Positions 19,272-41,069 of a stretch of 62,139 nucleotides of DNA are shown here, piece after piece. The DNA comes from an uncultured Clostridia bacterium (GTDB lineage Bacteria; Bacillota; Clostridia; TANB77; CAG-508): the NCBI GenBank assembly GCA_934155625.1, contig CAKPHD010000003.1:1-62139 (forward strand), given 5' to 3'. The first letter of the stretch is position 1, and the number at the start of each line of letters is the position of its first letter. Below the pieces are notes generated by a model. That model was not told where the DNA came from and did not search any database. It worked only from the letters and a program-made list of their open reading frames with translations. The position numbers were made by a program, and so were the translations under genes.

Positions 19272-21269
19272 CTATACTGCTTGATGTTCTTTTACAATCT
19301 CACAAATTAGATTTGCTGCATTCTCTACACCAATTGCATCACTATTAATACAAATATCATAATTAGAAGGATCTTTCCACTCTTTTTCTGTATAATATTT
19401 ATAATGATTTGCTCTTAATTTATTTATTCTGATTATTTCTTTTTCAGCTTTTGCCCTATCTAAATTGTAAAATTCAGTTGCTCTTTTAATTTTATCTTCC
19501 ATGCTACTAGCAACAAAAATACTAACAACATTTTCTTTATCTTTTAATATAAAATCTGCACATCTTCCTACAATTACGCAAGATTCCTTTTCCGCAACTT
19601 CTTTAATTAATTCAGATTCTTTTATAAATAAGTCATCAGAATTGTTTAAACCTGCATAATATCCATTATTAAGTATTGCTAATGCATCTCTTTTTTGTTC
19701 ATTGCTTTCAATATATTCTTCTGCTAAACCTGTTTCTTCTGCTAATTTTTCAACAAATTCTTTATCATATAATTTTATTCCTAATTTGTCTGCAATTAAT
19801 CTTCCTATATATCTTCCGCCTGAACCATATTCTCTAGAAATTGTAATTACTATTTGTTTATCAGTTGTACTATTTTGCTTTGTTTCTTCTTTTACAATTT
19901 CATTAGCATTTACATTTGCTTTTAATCCTTTAACCTCTTTTATTAAGAATATCGCCGCTAAAATAAATGCTATTCCATCTGCTACTGGTCCTGCACTTAA
20001 CACTCCCATGATTCCAAACATACTACTTAATATTATCATTGATGGAATTAATATAACAATTTGTCTTGAAAGTGATAATATTGCACTTTTTGTACTTTTT
20101 CCAATTGCTTGGAAGAATATTCCTGATGGAATTTGTACACCATTTACTATTGTAAGCATTAAATATGTTCTAAATGCTAAACATGCAAATTCCATGTAAT
20201 TTTCATCACCGCTACCAAATATTAATATTAATTTGTCTGGTATTGTTTGGAATAATATAAATGCTATTGTACTTATTACTACACTTGAGCCTAATACTAT
20301 TTTTAATGCTTGTTTTACTCTATCATATTTTCTTGCACCATAATTATATCCAAATATTGGTTGACTTCCTGCTGCTATACCAATTATTATACTATTTAGT
20401 ATTTGGCTTATTTTCATTACTATTCCTAATACTGTTATTGGTATTTCTGCTCCAAATTTGCTTTCTGCTCCGTATTTTCCAAGTAAATTATTTTCAGCTG
20501 TCATAACACATACAACACTCATTTGCGTAATAAAACTGCTTATTCCTAATGCTGAAACTTTTTTACATACATTTGCTTTTAATTTAAAGCTTTCTTTTGA
20601 TAATTTTATTGATTTAAATCTTTTTATATATGCAACATTTAATATAAATGTTAATATTTGACTTATAACTGTTGCTAATGCTGCACCTTCTACACCTTTA
20701 TGAAATACAAATATGAATATTGGATCTAATATTGTATTTAATACAGCTCCACTTACCATACTTACCATTGAATATTTTGGACTTCCATCTGCTCTAATAA
20801 TAGAGTTTAATGTTGTTCCTATCATTGAGAATGGGAATCCTATTGCAATGATTTTCCCATATGCCATTGCATATTCTTTTAAATTTTCTGTACATCCAAA
20901 TATTTTTAAAAATACTGGTAAAAATATAAGTGTTATAATGCAGAATATTACTGAAACAATTGCAGATAGCAATACTCCATTTCCTATTCCTGTTTCTGCC
21001 TCTTTTTTCTTTTTTTCTCCTAATTTTAAACTTAGATATGCTGATGCACCATCTCCAAACATTAATGAAAATGCTAAACATATCATTACTAATGGGAATA
21101 CTACATTTGTAGCTCCATTTCCTAAATATCCTACTCCTTGACCTATAAATATTTGGTCTACTATATTATATAGCGAGTTTACCAACATAGATATTATACA
21201 AGGAATTGAGAATTTTCTGATTAGTTTTCCTATTTTTTCTTTTCCTAATATGTTTTCTTCTTGTTCCAT
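19272..21269 (-). CDS. MATE family efflux transporter fused to a C-terminal cytidylate-kinase-like (Cytidylate_kin2-type P-loop) domain
   Basis: About 12 TM helices of MATE type (..YNIVDQIFIGQGVGYLGNGATNV..) for ~450 aa, then a linker, then IVITISREYGSGGRYIGRLIADKLGIKLYDKEF...VIVGRCADFIL...KLRANHYKYYT. The ATG at 21269 has a GGGAGA RBS; the track start at 21311 lies at or before the predicted TSS. Confidence 0.75.
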   Translation of the reverse strand: MEQEENILGKEKIGKLIRKFSIPCIISMLVNSLYNIVDQIFIGQGVGYLGNGATNVVFPLVMICLAFSLMFGDGASAYLSLKLGEKKKKEAETGIGNGVLLSAIVSVIFCIITLIFLPVFLKIFGCTENLKEYAMAYGKIIAIGFPFSMIGTTLNSIIRADGSPKYSMVSMVSGAVLNTILDPIFIFVFHKGVEGAALATVISQILTFILNVAYIKRFKSIKLSKESFKLKANVCKKVSALGISSFITQMSVVCVMTAENNLLGKYGAESKFGAEIPITVLGIVMKISQILNSIIIGIAAGSQPIFGYNYGARKYDRVKQALKIVLGSSVVISTIAFILFQTIPDKLILIFGSGDENYMEFACLAFRTYLMLTIVNGVQIPSGIFFQAIGKSTKSAILSLSRQIVILIPSMIILSSMFGIMGVLSAGPVADGIAFILAAIFLIKEVKGLKANVNANEIVKEETKQNSTTDKQIVITISREYGSGGRYIGRLIADKLGIKLYDKEFVEKLAEETGLAEEYIESNEQKRDALAILNNGYYAGLNNSDDLFIKESELIKEVAEKESCVIVGRCADFILKDKENVVSIFVASSMEDKIKRATEFYNLDRAKAEKEIIRINKLRANHYKYYTEKEWKDPSNYDICINSDAIGVENAANLICEIVKEHQAV

Positions 21270-21326
21270 TCTTTTCTCCCTTCTTTTATCTTTTTTATTA
21301 TTTTTTGGCATTTTGCCAACTTGACT

Positions 21327-24811: not shown

Positions 24812-24951
24812 GTTTTTTCTCATTTCCCTTCTTATATATTTATCGACTTGTTATAATATATCATGATTATATGGACTTTTCAAGTGTTTTTAATTATTTT
24901 TTTGTAAAGGTTAATTACCAGCTGATAATTTATTATAAATTAACGTCAAAA

Positions 24952-24975
24952 AGAAGCTCCCATTTGAGAGCTTCT
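24952..24975 (-). terminator. rho-independent terminator closing the beta-CASP / ClpX-like cassette
   Basis: Minus strand AGAAGCTC-TCAAATGG-GAGCTTCT followed by TTTTTGA, 16 nt after the stop at 24991. Confidence 0.7.
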
Positions 24976-24990
24976 TTACTGATTTTATGG

Positions 24991-26085
24991 TTACTTTAAA
25001 ATATATTTTGTGTTATCTTCTTCAATCCCTTCTTGCAAAATCAATTCTTTATAGGTTCCTTTTGGCTTTGACATCACTTGATACATAATTTTATCAAATA
25101 CATAATTGGTTACATTAGCAAGTTCACGAGCTCCAGTCTCTTTGCCTTCTATTTTTGCTTTTTTTGCAAATGCACTTATATTCTTTTTGGTATACTTGGT
25201 TGTAATTCCATCATTTTTCAGACAGTTTACATACATTTTGAATCTAGACTTTTGAGAACTTGTTAGAATATTTTCAAGTACCTCTTCTGATAATTCATTT
25301 AATTGAACTATCTTATCAATTCTTCCAATAAATTCTTCTTTAAGTCCAAACTCAATCAAATCACTCTTTTTGATTTTTTTGTCTAACTGCATCTGCTTTT
25401 CTGATATTGTTTCTGCTGAAAATCCCATCTTAGTTTCTTTTTTTAATCTTGCTTTTACTATTTCATCAATTCCAGAAAATGCTCCAGCAAAATAAAACAT
25501 GATTTTATCTGTGTTCATTTCAACAGAATCAATGATTCCATTCACTCTGACTAGCTGAAGTGGTATAGTTTTTCCTTCGACTAATTTAAGTAGTGCATCT
25601 TGCACTCCCTTTCCAGAGATATCATGTTGGCTAGGATCCTTAGAAGCTGCTTTTTTATCGATTTCATCAATAATTATTATTCCATTTTCTGCTCTTTCTA
25701 CATCATATTCTGCAACCTCGAGCAGTCGAATAATAATATCTGACACACTTGCCCCAACATAACCTTCTTTTGTGTAATCATTTGCATCTATAGTTATACA
25801 AACTTTTCCTGTTTTTTTAGCAAGCTGTCTTAAAATCTCAGTTTTACCAGTTCCACTTTTTCCAATAATCAATACATTAGACTTTATTTTATAATTGATT
25901 GATTTATATTCAGCATTTACAATCTGCCGAACTTGTTCATCTTGACCTTTTACAGTATCTAAAATAAATTTTTCAGTTTCTGTAATCGTTGGAACTTTAA
26001 CTCTTATAACTGTTTTTGATGTCTGTTGCGGTATTTTTTCCTTTGGGACAGCTTTTAACTTTCTTTTTAAAAATTCCATTTTCAT
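24991..26085 (-). CDS. ClpX-paralogous AAA+ ATPase lacking the N-terminal zinc-binding domain and the RKH loop
   Basis: 364 aa. Walker A IIGKSGTGKTEIL, pore-1 loop EGYVGASV (GYVG), Walker B IIIIDEIDKKA, DISGKGVQDALLKLVEG, and KMGFSAE at the position of the ClpP-docking IGF loop. The bona fide ClpX at 37572-38897 has SMGFGAD there. EFIGRIDKIVQLNELSEE is also present. No CxxC pairs, and no GGRKHPQQE. Confidence 0.8.
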   Translation of the reverse strand: MKMEFLKRKLKAVPKEKIPQQTSKTVIRVKVPTITETEKFILDTVKGQDEQVRQIVNAEYKSINYKIKSNVLIIGKSGTGKTEILRQLAKKTGKVCITIDANDYTKEGYVGASVSDIIIRLLEVAEYDVERAENGIIIIDEIDKKAASKDPSQHDISGKGVQDALLKLVEGKTIPLQLVRVNGIIDSVEMNTDKIMFYFAGAFSGIDEIVKARLKKETKMGFSAETISEKQMQLDKKIKKSDLIEFGLKEEFIGRIDKIVQLNELSEEVLENILTSSQKSRFKMYVNCLKNDGITTKYTKKNISAFAKKAKIEGKETGARELANVTNYVFDKIMYQVMSKPKGTYKELILQEGIEEDNTKYILK

Positions 26086-26143
26086 GATAGATACCTCCTT
26101 TTAGCATCTAAGATATCTTAGATAGAACTTCCTAAAGGAAGTT

Positions 26144-27664
26144 CTATCTAGAATAAGAATTCTTTCTCCGACAAATCATTCTGAGTTTCTTTTTCTTCTT
26201 ATCACTCTTTTCTTTTTTCGGTGGCTCTTGTTTATTTTTAAGCATCGTGTAAAGCTTAGCTCCCATAATTTTTATAAAACCATAATGTGCTAACTTTACA
26301 GTATATTCTCCAAGAACCTCAACTCTCTTAGTAATGTCTGCATTTTCAACTCTTAATGCAAACTTTTTCTTTGTTTCTTTTTCTCCGTGATTTACTAAAA
26401 CTAATTTCAGATTTTTGAATCTAGAAAGTAATTCTAGTAATTCATCAGCTTTTGCATGAGATGAAAACTGACTTGTTGAATAGATTTGAGCCTTAACATA
26501 AAATTCTTGTCCCATAATCCAAACAGCATGATTTTCAAACTCATTGTCAATAAGCTTACGTCCAAGAGTTCCTTCACTACAGTAACTTGTTAAGAAAATT
26601 GCCCAGTTTTCATTGCTAATAACAGATGGCAAATATAACTGTGCTGGACCATGGTCTAACATTCCAGATGTTGTCAAAATAATTTTTTGCCCTTTGGATG
26701 CCATTACAAATGGTCTAGTATCTTTGTCTACCCAATGGAAGTTTTCTGGAAGAAATTCTAATTTTTCCTCTTCGATTTCAAGTTCACCACTCCGATATTT
26801 GTGTGTATATTGATGTGATAAATTTCCATCCAAATAAATAGGAATTTCTTTACTGATTCTTCCGTCATCTTGCATCTGCTTAAGAATAAGCAAAATCTCC
26901 TGAGCCCTGCCTTGTGCCAATACTGGAATAAATAAACTTTTTCTCTGTTCCAATATCATTTTTACATCATCTTCAAAGTTATATTGAATCTCTTTAGTTT
27001 CTGTATCTCCATAAGTAGATTCAACAATAACATTCATCGGCAATCCATAAACCCAAGTAGGTATTGGCTGCACTTCTTTAAAAATGTTGTAAGGCTTGTA
27101 ATCACCTGTAAAGAATAAGTTGATATCTTGTTCTCCAGGATAACTTATCTGCACAAGAATCATTCCTGCCCCAATAATATGCCCATTGTCAAAGTACGTT
27201 ATTTTGATGTTTGGATTAATCCGAATTCCTTCACCAATATTGCATGGTTCTAAGTATTCAAATACTCTCTCAACATCTTCCTCCTCATAAAGTGGTTTTA
27301 CCTTCTGTCTTTGAGAATCTTCTTTCATTATTTGATAAGAATTGCTTAATGAAATTCTCAAAAGCTTGCTGGTAGGCTTGGTTGTAAATATTTTTCCATG
27401 AAAGCCATACTTACATAATAATGGCAATTTTCCAATATGATCTGCATGATTGTGCGTAATTAACACAAATTCAATGTCTTCACTTGCAAATGGAAAATCT
27501 AATTTATTCAACTCGTTGTAAAGCTTTTCTTGGAAAAGACCACAATCGACTATAAATTTAATCTTCCGTCCATTTGGTAAATGCACAACCACTAATAAGC
27601 AGGAACCTGTGACTTCTGGATGCAATGCTGTAATGTGTACATAAAGCTTTTCTTTTGAACCCAT
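26144..27664 (-). CDS. metallo-beta-lactamase fold nuclease of the beta-CASP family (RNase J/CPSF-like)
   Basis: 506 aa. MBL motifs VDCG, ITHNHADHIG (HxHxDH), DNGHIIGAG and FFTGDY. Beta-CASP motifs A VIVESTYG, B FSSHAKADELLELL and C LVNHGE. Lys/Arg-rich C-terminal tail. AGGAAGGAGAG RBS. Confidence 0.8.
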   Translation of the reverse strand: MGSKEKLYVHITALHPEVTGSCLLVVVHLPNGRKIKFIVDCGLFQEKLYNELNKLDFPFASEDIEFVLITHNHADHIGKLPLLCKYGFHGKIFTTKPTSKLLRISLSNSYQIMKEDSQRQKVKPLYEEEDVERVFEYLEPCNIGEGIRINPNIKITYFDNGHIIGAGMILVQISYPGEQDINLFFTGDYKPYNIFKEVQPIPTWVYGLPMNVIVESTYGDTETKEIQYNFEDDVKMILEQRKSLFIPVLAQGRAQEILLILKQMQDDGRISKEIPIYLDGNLSHQYTHKYRSGELEIEEEKLEFLPENFHWVDKDTRPFVMASKGQKIILTTSGMLDHGPAQLYLPSVISNENWAIFLTSYCSEGTLGRKLIDNEFENHAVWIMGQEFYVKAQIYSTSQFSSHAKADELLELLSRFKNLKLVLVNHGEKETKKKFALRVENADITKRVEVLGEYTVKLAHYGFIKIMGAKLYTMLKNKQEPPKKEKSDKKKKKLRMICRRKNSYSR

Positions 27665-27735
27665 AAAATCTCTCCTTCCTTATATATCAAAATAATTTTT
27701 TGATATGAAAGAATTATGTTAATAGTTACATTTTT

Positions 27736-27764
27736 ATTATACACAGATTTCCTCAATAATTCAA
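27736..27764 (-). promoter_or_regulatory. sigma-A promoter of the beta-CASP / ClpX-like cassette
   Basis: Minus strand TTGAAT (27764-27759), 17-nt spacer, TATAAT (27741-27736). The leader contains a 9-bp-arm palindrome ATATCAAAA-N5-TTTTGATAT adjacent to the RBS. Confidence 0.6.
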
Positions 27765-37571: not shown

Positions 37572-38897
37572 TTATGCTGTTTCTTTTTGTTCAACAGTAA
37601 TTCTTTCACTTCTAACCTTTTTAACTTTATTAGGATTTTCTATAATTCTTGGTTCTTGATTATCTAAAACAGTTTCTTTTGTAACAATACACTGTTCAAT
37701 TTTTTCATTAGAAGGAATATCAAACATAATATCTCTCATAATTTCTTCAATTATAGAACGTAATCCTCTAGCACCAGTTTTTCTTTCAATTGCTTTATCT
37801 ACAATGGCTTCTAGTGCTTCATGTTCAAATATTAATTCTACATCATCCATTTGCAATAATTTTTTGTATTGTTTTACTAATGCATTTTTTGGTTCTGTAG
37901 TAATTTTAATTAAAGCTTCTCTATCTAGCTCTTTTAATGTAGCTATTATTGGCAATCTTCCTATAAATTCTGGAATCATACCAAATTTTAATAAATCTTG
38001 TGGTAATATTTGTTCAAACACTTTATATCTATCTATATCCTTTTTGCTTTCAATATCAGCTCCAAATCCCATTGATTTCTTACCAATTCTGTCTTTGATA
38101 ATATTTTCAAGACCTTCGAAAGCGCCACCACAGATAAATAATATATTTGATGTATTTATTTGTAATAATTCTTGTTGAGGATGTTTTCTTCCTCCTTGTG
38201 GTGGAACAGATGCAACTGTACCTTCTACAATTTTCAACAATGCTTGTTGTACCCCTTCTCCACTGACATCTCTTGTTATAGATGGATTTTCAGATTTTCT
38301 TGTTATTTTGTCAATTTCATCTATATAGATTATTCCTTTTTCTGCTTTTTCTATATCACCATCAGCAGCTTGAATTAATTTTAAAAGTATGTTTTCAACA
38401 TCTTCTCCAACATATCCTGCTTCTGTAAGTGTTGTAGCATCAGCAATAGCAAATGGAACATTTAATATTTTTGCAAGAGTACTTGCTAACAATGTCTTTC
38501 CACAACCAGTTGGTCCTAGCAACAAAATATTACTTTTTTGTATTTCTACATCATCATCATTTTTTTCATGTTTAGCCATCATTTCTTCTTCATTTGCTAT
38601 TCTTTTATAGTGGTTGTATACAGCAACTGACAATGTTTTCTTAGCCTCATCTTGGCCAATTACATATTGATCTAATATTCCTTTTATTTCTCTAGGACTT
38701 GGTATTTTATCTAATCCTGCTAAAGTGTAAGCATCATCATCTTCATCATAAAATTCACTTTCGATTATTTCATTGCATAGTCCGATACATTCATTACAAA
38801 TGTATACTCCAGGACCTGCAACAATTTTCTTTACACTCTCTTGTGTTTTACCACAAAATGAACATTTTACACCTTTAGGTGTATCATTTTTTGCCAT
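37572..38897 (-). CDS. clpX: ATP-dependent Clp protease ATP-binding subunit ClpX
   Basis: 441 aa. N-terminal C4 zinc finger CSFCGK...[38 protein letters not shown] (RKH loop) and the MGFG ClpP-docking loop. Confidence 0.96.
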
Positions 38898-38973
38898 CTA
38901 TATTTCTCCTTTTCTTATTTTATCAAATTCTAATAACTTTATTAATGTACATTAAATGTAATTATTATTAGAA

Positions 38974-39585
38974 TTAAATTCTTTTGTCCATAATTCCATC
39001 AATAAGACCATATTCTAAAGCTTCTTGAGCTGTCATATAGTGGTCTCTTTCAGTATCTCTCTCAATTGTCTCTATAGATTGACCTGTTTTTTCACTTAAT
39101 AATTTATTTAATTTTTCTCTTGTTCTTATCATATGGTCTGCATGAATTTTAATTTCTGTAGCTTGACCAGAAATTCCTCCACCTTGACCACCAATTAATG
39201 GTTGATGTATTAATATCTCTGAATTTGGTGTAGCATATCTTTTTCCTTTTTCACCATTAGCTAGTAAAACAGCTCCAAAGCTTGCTGCTAAACCAACACA
39301 TATTGTTGAAACAGGACATTTGATATAATTCATTGTATCAACAATTCCCATTCCATCTGTAATAGATCCACCAGGTGAATTAATATATAAAAATATTTCT
39401 TTATCTGGATCTTCTGACTCTAAGAATAATAATTGTGCAATTATTAAACTTGCAGATGTTGGATTTACATCTTCTCCTAAAAATATTATTCTATCTTTTA
39501 ATAATCTTGAGAAAATATCATAAGATCTTTCTCCTTTGCTTGTTTGTTCAATTACATATGGTACTAAACTATCTTTTTCTATCAT
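38974..39585 (-). CDS. clpP: ATP-dependent Clp protease proteolytic subunit ClpP
   Basis: About 203 aa from the ATG at 39585 (AGAGGAGGA RBS). [30 protein letters not shown], and the catalytic Ser context GLAASFGA. Confidence 0.95.
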
Positions 39586-39607
39586 ACTTTTCCTCCTCTT
39601 TATAGAT

Positions 39608-39678
39608 TGCACCGATGGGACCGGTTCTTATCGGTGCAATTTTTCTCTGCACCGATGAGAACCGGTCCCATCGGTGCA
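39608..39678. repeat. REP-like doublet (cores in inverted orientation, identical palindromic arms) between tig and clpP
   Basis: TGCACCGATGGGACCGGTTCTTATCGGTGCA (39608-39638) and TGCACCGATGAGAACCGGTCCCATCGGTGCA (39648-39678). Confidence 0.9.
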
Positions 39679-39740
39679 ATCATTTTCAAAAATAAAAGGG
39701 CGCAAATTATTAAATCACCAATTTGCCCCTTTTTTAGCTA

Positions 39741-41069
39741 TTATTTTTTGCTAGCTGTTGTTTTTTTTGTTTCTTTTTTCTTGTCTGTGAATTTTGCATT
39801 TGCTACTATGAATTCTAATGCTTTTTCTGATTTTATTCCGTCTTCTAAGTAGTTCTTTAAGTTTTCATTTTTGCTTAATTCTTCTACATCTTTTCCATAG
39901 CTTTTAGCCATTTCTTCCATTTTTGCTTTTACTTCTTCTTCACTTGCTTCGATTTTTTCTGCTTTTATTACAGCTTCTAATACAAGTCTTGATTTTATTG
40001 CTTCTATAGCTTGTGGCTCATATTCTTTTCTTACTTCTTCTTCAGTCTTTCCTAACATTTTTAGGTATTGTTCTAGATTTAGTCCTTGATATGCAAGTCT
40101 TTGTTCAAAGTCTTTTAACATATTGTCTATTTCTAGTTCAATCATTCCTGATGGAACGTCTAATTTTGAATCTTCACATACAGCTTTGATTGCTGCATCT
40201 TCTGTTTCATATTTTGCTTTTTGTTCATTATTTTTTGTTAGTTTTTCTTTGATACTTTTCTTTAATTCATCTAATGTATCAAATTCACTAACGTCTTTGG
40301 CAAATTCGTCATCTAATTCTGGTAATTCTTTTTTCTTTATTTCATGTAATTTTACTTTGAATGTAGCATCTTTTCCTGCTAAGTCTTTTGAGAAGTATTC
40401 TTTTGGGAATGTTACTTTTATTTCTTTTTCTCCATCAATTTCCATTCCTACTAATTGTTCTTCAAATCCTGGGATAAATGCTCCACTTCCTATTTCTAAT
40501 TCATGACCTTCTGCTTTTCCACCATCAAATGCAACTCCGTCAACAAATCCTTCGAAATCAATTGTTGCTGTATCTCCATTTTCTAATGGTCTGTCATCAA
40601 CTGTTATTAATCTTGAATTGTGTTCTTGCATATGTCCTAATTCATGATCTACAGCTTTTTTGTCTACTTTGTATTCTATTTTTTCGATTTCTACTCCTTT
40701 ATATTTTCCAAGTTTTACTTCTGGTTTTGTTTGTACTACTGCAGAGAATATTAAGTCTTTTCCTTTTTCCATTTGAGCTATATCTACTTCTGGTCTGCTT
40801 ACTGCTTCTATTTTGTTTTCTTTTATAGCTTCTTCATAGGCTTCAGTTGCAACTTCGTTGAATGCATCTTCATAGAATATTTGCTCTCCATAATATTTTT
40901 CTACTATATTCATTGGTGCTTTTCCTTTTCTGAAACCTGGTATGTTAAAGTATTTGGCATTTTGAAAATATACTTTTTTCATAGCATTTTCAAATTTTTC
41001 TGCTTCTACTGTAATTTCTAATTTTACTTCATTTGCGTTTTTTGTTTTTTCAACTTTACAATTCATCAT
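39741..41069 (-). CDS. tig: trigger factor
   Basis: 442 aa. N-terminal ribosome-binding GFRKGKAP motif, central FKBP-type PPIase (FIPGFEEQLVGM) and an acidic/Lys-rich C-terminal arm domain. Confidence 0.95.
   Translation of the reverse strand: MMNCKVEKTKNANEVKLEITVEAEKFENAMKKVYFQNAKYFNIPGFRKGKAPMNIVEKYYGEQIFYEDAFNEVATEAYEEAIKENKIEAVSRPEVDIAQMEKGKDLIFSAVVQTKPEVKLGKYKGVEIEKIEYKVDKKAVDHELGHMQEHNSRLITVDDRPLENGDTATIDFEGFVDGVAFDGGKAEGHELEIGSGAFIPGFEEQLVGMEIDGEKEIKVTFPKEYFSKDLAGKDATFKVKLHEIKKKELPELDDEFAKDVSEFDTLDELKKSIKEKLTKNNEQKAKYETEDAAIKAVCEDSKLDVPSGMIELEIDNMLKDFEQRLAYQGLNLEQYLKMLGKTEEEVRKEYEPQAIEAIKSRLVLEAVIKAEKIEASEEEVKAKMEEMAKSYGKDVEELSKNENLKNYLEDGIKSEKALEFIVANAKFTDKKKETKKTTASKK

Follow-up and report, generated by a model that had tools for sequence, protein, structure and literature searches.

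The stretch of DNA analyzed here, referred to as the window, is 62,139 nucleotides (nt) in length and comprises positions 1 to 62,139 of contig CAKPHD010000003.1 (assembly GCA_934155625.1) from an uncultured Clostridia bacterium. Its minus strand carries two adjacent genes: a nuclease gene (26144-27664) encoding a 506-amino acid (aa) β-CASP metallo-β-lactamase (MBL) protein of the CPSF73/TTHA0252 type and a gene (24991-26085) encoding a 364-aa ClpX-like AAA+ ATPase, here called ClpXL. This two-gene locus is flanked by secA on one side and by a DUF1980_C membrane-protein gene on the other, and both open reading frames (ORFs) and both flanks are exactly as described in an initial annotation made from the sequence alone. 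That annotation regarded the two genes as a self-contained cassette, and as either a defence-type module or a specialized RNA-decay device. We show below that the two genes are a real conserved partnership; the second of these proposals fits the evidence.

The 58-nt spacer, its hairpin and second palindrome, the leader palindrome and the terminator are all found where they had been placed. A promoter-like sequence, TTGAAT-17-TATAAT (27736-27764, minus strand), is predicted 5' of the nuclease gene. This 10/12 match ranks first among the minus-strand sites of the region. The sequence reported as a consensus promoter is thus present, but the AT-rich region contains no fewer promoter-like sites than expected by chance (22 versus a shuffled expectation of 17.1 ± 4.2), so that its function as the nuclease promoter is plausible, not proven. 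A leader stem-loop, ATATCAAAA-AATTA-TTTTGATAT (27679-27711, minus strand), lies a few nt 5' of the nuclease Shine-Dalgarno (SD) sequence, AGGAAGGAGA (27671-27680, minus strand). The ClpXL gene has its own SD sequence, AAGGAGG (26094-26100, minus strand), with a short palindrome or stem-loop 5' of it (26106-26123, minus strand). Past the ClpXL gene is a terminator-like hairpin (24950-24977, minus strand), beyond which are promoter-like sites for secA (24855-24893).

An intercistronic hairpin covers the nuclease stop codon (26114-26155, minus strand) with no U-tract behind it. Its 20-nt arms (26114-26133 and 26136-26155), which overlap the TAG stop, are complementary at 90% of positions and include a perfect core. 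The 86-nt stop-to-start segment, comprising this hairpin and two smaller stems, has a folding energy of -29.8 kcal/mol (z = -7.1). In the loci fetched from relatives (L-numbers, 2.1 Mb in all), the hairpin is present in L001 and retained in L002 with changes on both arms, but it is absent from L004 and L005, where the gaps are 11-16 nt, and L008 has a terminator and a promoter in its place. It was therefore rejected as a conserved trait of the pair, being confined to the window, L001 and L002.

The nuclease is a CPSF73/TTHA0252-branch β-CASP enzyme. It begins straight at the MBL domain and matches three Pfam MBL models (Lactamase_B_6 among them), Beta-Casp (1.9e-22; 80.5 bits against a cutoff of 27.7) and RMMBL (PF07521; 2.2e-11; 44 bits against a cutoff of 21.6). 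Judged from the sequence, its catalytic motifs are intact: MBL motifs 1-4 and β-CASP motifs A, B and C are all found, and residues HNHADH (71-76), H162, D188, E215, H403 and H426 do not vary across a family alignment of 11 sequences, in agreement with the motifs and fold proposed in the initial annotation. A sequence search of the PDB places TTHA0252 at the top (4.5e-40), followed by aCPSF1/FttA, Cas14, CPSF73 and INTS11. The AlphaFold2 model has a predicted local distance difference test score (pLDDT) of 83.8 and, in a Foldseek search, its best length-matched fold is also TTHA0252, with a target-normalized template modelling (TM) score of 0.83-0.86; query-normalized TM scores to aCPSF1, CPSF73 and INTS11 are 0.70-0.75, and E values against Cas14 and aCPSF1 are 1e-27 to 1e-30. 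Disruption of TTHA0252, a non-essential 5'-3' exoribonuclease, alters global mRNA levels (PMC4229858). The window protein probably targets cellular RNA, as both a 5'-3' exo- and an endo-RNase.

Narrower assignments of the nuclease were considered and rejected. It is not RNase J (TIGR00649, 15.5 bits against a cutoff of 400; RnjA, 14.9 against 820). Cas14 is its best NCBIfam match but scores 250 bits against a cutoff of 800, and there are no cas genes in any locus and no CRISPR array nearby. The match to aCPSF1/FttA (224 bits against a cutoff of 580) covers only model positions 173-613, and KH domains are missing. At the C-terminus, the window nuclease has a Lys/Arg-rich tail (residues ~473-506). 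Shorter, 471-aa forms of the protein (e.g. L092, L095 and L107) have a highly conserved extreme C-terminus, YGLVKTLSTKF(E/D/K), in place of which the secA-slot clade that includes the window has a Lys/Arg-rich tail of ~35 residues. When nuclease C-termini were compared between ClpXL-linked and unlinked genes as possible degrons, no difference was observed.

The derivation of the second gene from ClpX, also proposed in the initial annotation, is borne out by its NCBIfam matches, its core motifs and its alignment with the genuine ClpX of the window (37572-38897). Both NCBIfam matches are below cutoff (NF003745, 228 bits versus 359; TIGR00382, 210 versus 371), and the AAA+ core is 35% identical to that of the genuine protein. 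ClpXL retains Walker A (GKSGTGKT), Walker B (IIIIDEIDK), the GYVG pore loop, EFIGR and TGARE, along with the arginine finger and sensor-2, and its MGF tripeptide shares an alignment column with the MGF of the ClpP-docking loop of the genuine ClpX. As had been noted, the C4 zinc finger is missing (no Cys cluster is present, and residues 1-28 are short, variable and predicted to be disordered), and so is the RKH loop. The AlphaFold2 model of ClpXL (pLDDT 71) matches the ClpX chains in ClpXP complexes, with disorder over residues 1-28 and flexible pore and MGF loops.

Across ~76 members of the ClpXL family, an (I/L/M/V/A)GF tripeptide is found in essentially all proteins, distant Bacilli-type ones included, and the RKH-replacing loop is hypervariable in both length and sequence. 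ClpP docking therefore looks conserved and substrate recognition looks fast-evolving. The sole ClpP gene in the window (38974-39612, minus strand; Pfam CLP_protease, 7.8e-78) belongs to the canonical tig-clpP-clpX cluster (37572-41069), 11 kb from the pair; from the conserved xGF loop only, we infer that its product is the proteolytic partner of ClpXL. The RKH-replacing loop corresponds to ClpXL residues ~171-192 (window 25510-25575) and ranges from ~13 to 35 residues across relatives. It is acidic in many of them, with a recurring DPF-x-EE motif, and its charge, opposite to that of RKH, hints at a different degron chemistry.

ClpX-like homologues (30-36% identity) are found in metagenome-assembled genomes (MAGs) of Bacilli, 'Tenericutes' and Erysipelotrichaceae (L038:5497-7008, L047:5425-7014, L045:5377-6972, L043 and L040). 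These proteins are ~500-530 aa long from the most upstream ATG and have an N-terminal extension of 150-240 residues, in which no Pfam match or informative domain was found when the extensions were scanned. Their genes are often preceded by a conserved ORF of 82-89 aa and often followed by a UvrD-like helicase gene.

Close relatives of both window genes all come from MAGs of uncultured gut Clostridia, including Clostridium sp. CAG:245, CAG:567 and 28_12; among them is a complete chromosome of 1.55 Mb (OV788638.1). A family-profile scan of species-representative genomes identifies the nuclease in at least 209 species, and distribution within this one clade is broad, not patchy. Among the best 80 nuclease loci, ClpXL is directly downstream in 12, in flipped order in one and reduced to a remnant in one; a PIN-PhoH gene is downstream in three. 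Counted from the other gene, the nuclease is adjacent in 14 of ~48 MAGs that have ClpXL at 39% identity or more. The two genes are adjacent in about one sixth to one third of the species sampled, nearly always in the order nuclease then ClpXL. Outside the secA clade, this order is found in at least eight unrelated flanking contexts and is the same throughout, with gaps between the genes of -7 to +45 nt, including overlapping stop and start codons. In a tree of ClpXL, nuclease-linked genomes are interleaved with unlinked ones. The two genes therefore co-occur well beyond this genome, at a locus that varies, and they have no functional annotation. Literature searches for a ClpX-like protein paired with a β-CASP/MBL protein returned nothing relevant.

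The second line of evidence is a leader element that both genes share in part of the family. In this canonical leader, a TACAATGTA box close to the predicted transcription start is followed, after ~10 nt, by a hairpin, ACATTGAAT-loop-ATTTAATG(T), that abuts the SD sequence. It is found at L092:4890-5003, L106:4890-5003, L010:5740-5835, L053:5905-6003 and 20 other loci, and its window equivalent is the stem-loop at 27679-27711. Where the genes are linked, the canonical leader precedes the nuclease. The hairpin motif occurs at ~27 sites in the 2.1 Mb of loci, 24 of them directly 5' of an SD sequence: 16 belong to the nuclease and eight to unlinked ClpXL genes. When 241 million metagenome records were scanned for the exact pattern, there were 64 matches, of which 39 have the canonical leader, and every one of the 39 precedes either the nuclease (34) or ClpXL (5). 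The remaining matches have other loops and no leader context, and look like chance occurrences.

A covariance model built from 22 leaders gave 13 further matches at E<0.05 in loci not used for training, 12 of which end at the start of either gene. Weak matches of this model before other genes were rejected, as only the generic promoter consensus was matched. In a motif scan, the MAGs CANQDO and CANQRI each carry the motif on both genes, which are unlinked; in CAAFGQ, the canonical motif is on ClpXL and the nuclease leader is a borderline covariance-model match (E=0.049). Neither the window region nor 10 loci with the leader match an Rfam family at the gathering score. The leader is a new candidate cis-regulatory element whose occurrence appears to be limited to the nuclease and ClpXL genes.

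The canonical hairpin is 96% paired and nearly invariant, with one pair that varies (G.U in 16 sequences, A-U in four and G-C in one). Covariation lends modest support to a different fold, in which the upstream box pairs with the 5' arm: one of 500 shuffles reached the observed score. A second stem-loop, GTATCT-TGTA-AGATAC, is located 8-10 nt upstream of the ClpXL SD sequence in 16 loci, whether the nuclease is upstream (L095:6425-6445, L102, L106, L107, L116, L156, L159, L020, L032 and L024) or not (L158, L160, L163, L182, L198 and L022). The window palindrome at 26106-26123 is its positional counterpart. This stem-loop is 91% paired with G.U-type substitutions; its sequences are near-invariant and show no significant covariation (the score was matched by 52 of 500 shuffles). 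In general, the 37 nt upstream of the SD sequence are more structured in both genes (median minimum free energy -4.45 kcal/mol for the nuclease and -4.3 for ClpXL) than in 696 other genes of the same loci (-1.7), an enrichment with p=1.5e-9 and 7.6e-5, respectively, among sequences that are not phylogenetically independent. The leader stem-loop of the window itself is conserved in its closest relatives, L073-L075.

The context-independent pairing and the shared leader are two independent lines of evidence that the genes are functionally linked, and together they make chance adjacency unlikely; the proposal that the two genes belong together thus stands, with a private leader shared by unlinked copies in part of the family. 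On balance, we consider it somewhat probable that the pair is a lineage-specific, chromosomally inherited, co-regulated module of uncultured gut Clostridia, composed of an RNase and an alternative unfoldase partner of ClpP. ClpXL would act as a natural ClpX-ΔN, a hexameric unfoldase docking on the cell's ClpP via the xGF loop and choosing substrates through the fast-evolving RKH-replacing loop in place of the zinc finger and adaptors. In the window, both genes would be co-transcribed from the one predicted promoter, and the intercistronic hairpin would probably set relative mRNA stability or processing. Common control could be achieved either in one operon or, where the genes are apart, by SD-abutting leader hairpins, which are the same element in part of the family. 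By acting on these structured leaders, the RNase may regulate its own expression, and a leader on ClpXL would tie expression of the unfoldase to RNase activity as well. The unfoldase-ClpP arm, in turn, may remove or remodel proteins tied to RNase action; these could be the enzyme itself or proteins bound to RNA.

A bolder form of this proposal, to which we assign a low probability, is that the pair represents an undescribed RNase-unfoldase(-ClpP) system in which RNA degradation is coupled to ATP-driven removal or proteolysis of RNA-bound proteins, such as those of stalled translation or transcription complexes, with leader-RNA feedback by the RNase on both genes.

Several observations weigh against a co-regulated RNase-unfoldase module. 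The covariance model of the canonical leader has no match in the window, whose own clade keeps only the architecture of an SD-abutting hairpin. Because the canonical hairpin is almost invariant, an RNA element and a DNA operator are indistinguishable by covariation, and an operator for a shared repressor explains the leader equally well; the promoter part of the leader is probably generic consensus. Leader-bearing sequences are phylogenetically related, and many of the metagenome matches are from the same species. No ClpP gene is adjacent to ClpXL at any locus examined, and the xGF loop is the single feature that points to ClpP docking. Some β-CASP enzymes act on DNA. Finally, the partnership is not obligate: each gene is found alone in many loci, a terminator and promoter separate the two in L008, and both are present yet unlinked in at least six MAGs (~32 kb apart in CAADUZ, ~148 kb apart in CAAFGQ, and on different contigs in CANQDO, CANQRI, CALXPW and CAJMLO). 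The description of the locus as a self-contained cassette is only partly correct, as each gene also occurs by itself, even in the slot between DUF1980 and secA.

These last observations are also what would be expected if the two were unrelated clade-specific genes whose adjacency is inherited synteny, with ClpXL serving general proteostasis as a second specificity factor of ClpP and the nuclease acting independently as an RNase. All of the loci are from one related clade, and shared ancestry could explain some of the adjacency. Simple synteny does not, however, account for the same order and the tight or overlapping spacing kept in at least eight flanking contexts, nor for a leader hairpin that unlinked copies of both genes share and that is otherwise absent from the 2.1 Mb of loci and from the rest of the 241-million-record scan. 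We regard this explanation as unlikely.

Another alternative retains the partnership but dispenses with ClpP: ClpXL would bind the nuclease and strip RNA-protein complexes (stalled ribosomes or RNA polymerase, or other ribonucleoproteins) for RNA decay. The conserved operon and shared leader are compatible with such a machine, as is the PIN-PhoH protein, an RNase plus ATPase, as an alternative neighbour; in other systems, β-CASP enzymes are reported to act as 'torpedoes' on transcription complexes (PMC8501993). A dedicated complex of this type is nonetheless distinctly unlikely in our view, given that no fusion proteins are found among the top 120 matches of either family, that the genes are often unlinked, that nuclease termini are alike in linked and unlinked genes and that the universal xGF loop argues that ClpP docking is retained.

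The evolution of the two genes is relevant to the defence-type module suggested initially. Both are under purifying selection, with dN/dS ratios of 0.10-0.17 (~0.10 for the nuclease and ~0.15 for ClpXL), yet both evolve much faster than the genes around them: alongside SecA proteins that are 97-99% identical, identity is 61-90% for ClpXL and 35-92% for the nuclease, and in L015 the genuine ClpX is 93% identical versus 45% for ClpXL. At fourfold sites in conserved codons, divergence of the pair from L004 and L005 is 0.8-1.1, near saturation, versus 0.47-0.55 for the DUF1980 and AI-2E genes and ~0.1 for secA. Against L001, the corresponding values are 0.16-0.22 for the pair and 0.37-0.38 for DUF1980 and AI-2E. 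This silent-site discordance suggests, from few sites, allele replacement by recombination. Synonymous divergence by the NG86 method pointed to very old alleles; in a re-check restricted to fourfold sites the discordance remains but is weaker, and is limited by saturation and small site counts. Disrupted copies also occur. The nuclease gene is interrupted by a stop at codon 20 in L002/L074 (OV788638.1), is split in L156:3762-4772 and has an identical 1-nt deletion right after its ATG in two independent metagenome contigs (L334:1856-2254 and L360:8328-8615); ClpXL is intact in all of these. Conversely, L113:5976-6116 is a 48-aa remnant of ClpXL behind an intact nuclease.

According to a defence reading, the pair would be an anti-phage or anti-plasmid module in which the AAA+ ATPase senses or regulates and the β-CASP effector destroys invader or host nucleic acid. 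The rapid evolution of the pair would suit such a role, as would the hypervariable substrate loop of ClpXL, the swapping of the nuclease at the same slot for a 35%-identical β-CASP protein (L003) or PIN-PhoH (L007, L049-52), the zeta toxin gene beside the nuclease in L067-69, the integrase past secA in L070-71 and the rank of Cas14 as best NCBIfam match. Against it, PADLOC-DB v2 gives no meaningful match for either protein: the best are LmuA (2.1e-5 over 64 residues) and mad8 (1e-4 over 34), and all are generic matches to the MBL core or P-loop only, at E values of 2e-5 or weaker over 30-90 residues. Searches of phage (INPHARED), PHROGs, IMG/VR and plasmid sequences return only distant homologues (40% identity or less), and none of 80 viral ClpX-like loci has a β-CASP neighbour. 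No defence island or mobile-element setting is observed; in the sampled loci the genes are mostly single chromosomal copies amid housekeeping genes, and they are often unlinked. The Cas14 score is far below cutoff, the presence of the nuclease in at least 209 species of one clade is not patchy, and an SD-abutting leader common to two genes is characteristic of housekeeping autoregulation rather than of defence islands. The defence reading is not supported, and we retain it as a slight chance because of the fast evolution and partner swapping; a plausible-looking candidate can thus be removed from the list of new defence systems.

The neighbourhoods of the pair vary in composition. In the window, the neighbours are the secA, DUF1980 and AI-2E genes. 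In relatives, the slot between DUF1980 and secA contains nuclease and ClpXL, ClpXL then nuclease (L006), the nuclease alone (L070-72), or a 35%-identical β-CASP gene with ClpXL (L003); in L049-52 and L007, PIN-PhoH replaces the nuclease beside ClpXL. The PIN-PhoH genes (PIN_4 plus PhoH, PhoH2/YlaK-like) are located at L049:4271-5680, L007:9038-10474, L122:6625-7983, L123 and L145, and in the last three of these, from other species, the gene is directly downstream of the nuclease. As PIN-PhoH is found beside either ClpXL or the nuclease, the three genes pair in all combinations. RNase III adjoins the nuclease in L063-65. Directly downstream of the nuclease in two species (L137:6549-8429 and L133:6411-8294), and 3 kb away in a third (L151:9376-11304), is a gene for a soluble AAA+-Peptidase_M41 fusion of 627-643 aa, which combines a ClpA/B/C D1-type module (AAA, AAA_lid_9) with an FtsH-type HEAGH domain and has no evident membrane anchor. 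The recurrence of PIN-PhoH, the RNase III neighbour and the AAA+-M41 fusion reinforce a theme of RNA turnover and proteolysis. Other neighbours of either gene are housekeeping genes: isoleucyl-tRNA synthetase (IleRS), ribosomal protein L13, release factor (RF), aldolase, HrcA, AhpC, SmpB, UvrA and RNase III.

Some additional genes were noted in these regions. A family of 420-494-aa proteins with no Pfam match is encoded beside ClpXL in L007 (7258-8742) and on both sides of it in L012 (4325-5587 and 7553-8917). The possibility that the unannotated 494-aa neighbour (L007, L012) is a cryptic β-CASP protein was rejected, as the hhalign probability is 0.3%. In the DUF1980 slot of L067 (6757-7868), L068 and L069, the nuclease is followed by a 69-aa ORF and a Zeta_toxin gene, and a tyrosine integrase gene is located just past secA in L070 (9619-10876) and L071; this neighbourhood is therefore a local insertion hotspot. 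Elsewhere in the window (19272-21311, minus strand), a 679-aa ORF encodes an unusual fusion of a MatE/polysaccharide-synthesis-type membrane domain and a C-terminal Cytidylate_kin2 domain.

Bacterial CPSF73-type β-CASP enzymes and ClpX paralogues that lack the N-domain are both widespread and poorly understood. Each protein described here is a new member of a known family; in the literature searched, neither the partnership nor the two-gene leader was found described. For a large clade of uncultured Clostridia from human and animal guts, the pair provides a concrete functional connection between RNA decay and AAA+ proteolysis that can be tested. Should this connection prove real, the bacterial RNA-turnover machinery would gain a new type of partner, and the re-targeting of ClpX in the absence of its zinc finger and RKH loops would have a natural example. 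Should it not, the two genes would remain a well-delimited marker operon of the clade.

Among known proteins, TTHA0252 of Thermus thermophilus is like the nuclease in its combination of MBL, β-CASP and RMMBL C-terminal regions and in having no KH domains. The two are only ~26-28% identical, however; the Lys/Arg-rich tail is a property of the window protein, and pairing and co-regulation with a ClpX-like ATPase were not found reported for TTHA0252 in the literature searched. Cas14 (of type VII CRISPR-Cas) and archaeal aCPSF1/FttA are in the same β-CASP subfamily neighbourhood, but the nuclease is a member of neither, with scores far below the cutoffs of 800 and 580 and no KH domains, cas5/cas7 or CRISPR array. 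ClpXL and ClpX have in common the AAA+ core, Walker A/B motifs, pore-1 aromatic residue, arginine finger, sensor-2 and IGF-type loop, and the zinc-binding N-domain is also missing from ClpX3 of Myxococcus xanthus (PMC11423568), a natural paralogue. Engineered ClpX-ΔN is another close counterpart. Unlike ClpX, ClpXL scores below the family cutoffs, has a hypervariable loop in place of RKH, is not located beside clpP, evolves far faster and is nuclease-linked.

As a combination of a nuclease with an NTP-driven motor, the pair resembles PIN-PhoH proteins of the PhoH2/YlaK type and RNA degradosomes. PhoH2 is reported to be conserved, poorly characterized and a post-transcriptional modulator of transcripts (PMC7390352). 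The pair differs from these systems in that its motor is a ClpX-type protein unfoldase, not an RNA helicase, and in that the two activities are on separate polypeptides.

With respect to regulation, RNase E, RNase III and PNPase (rne, rnc and pnp) autoregulate their own mRNAs via 5' untranslated regions. The leader of the nuclease is similar to those of rne, rnc and pnp in being a conserved, structured 5' leader near the ribosome-binding site of an RNase gene, and by analogy it may serve in autoregulation. In contrast to these leaders, it belongs to a new sequence family and is shared with a gene that does not encode an RNase.

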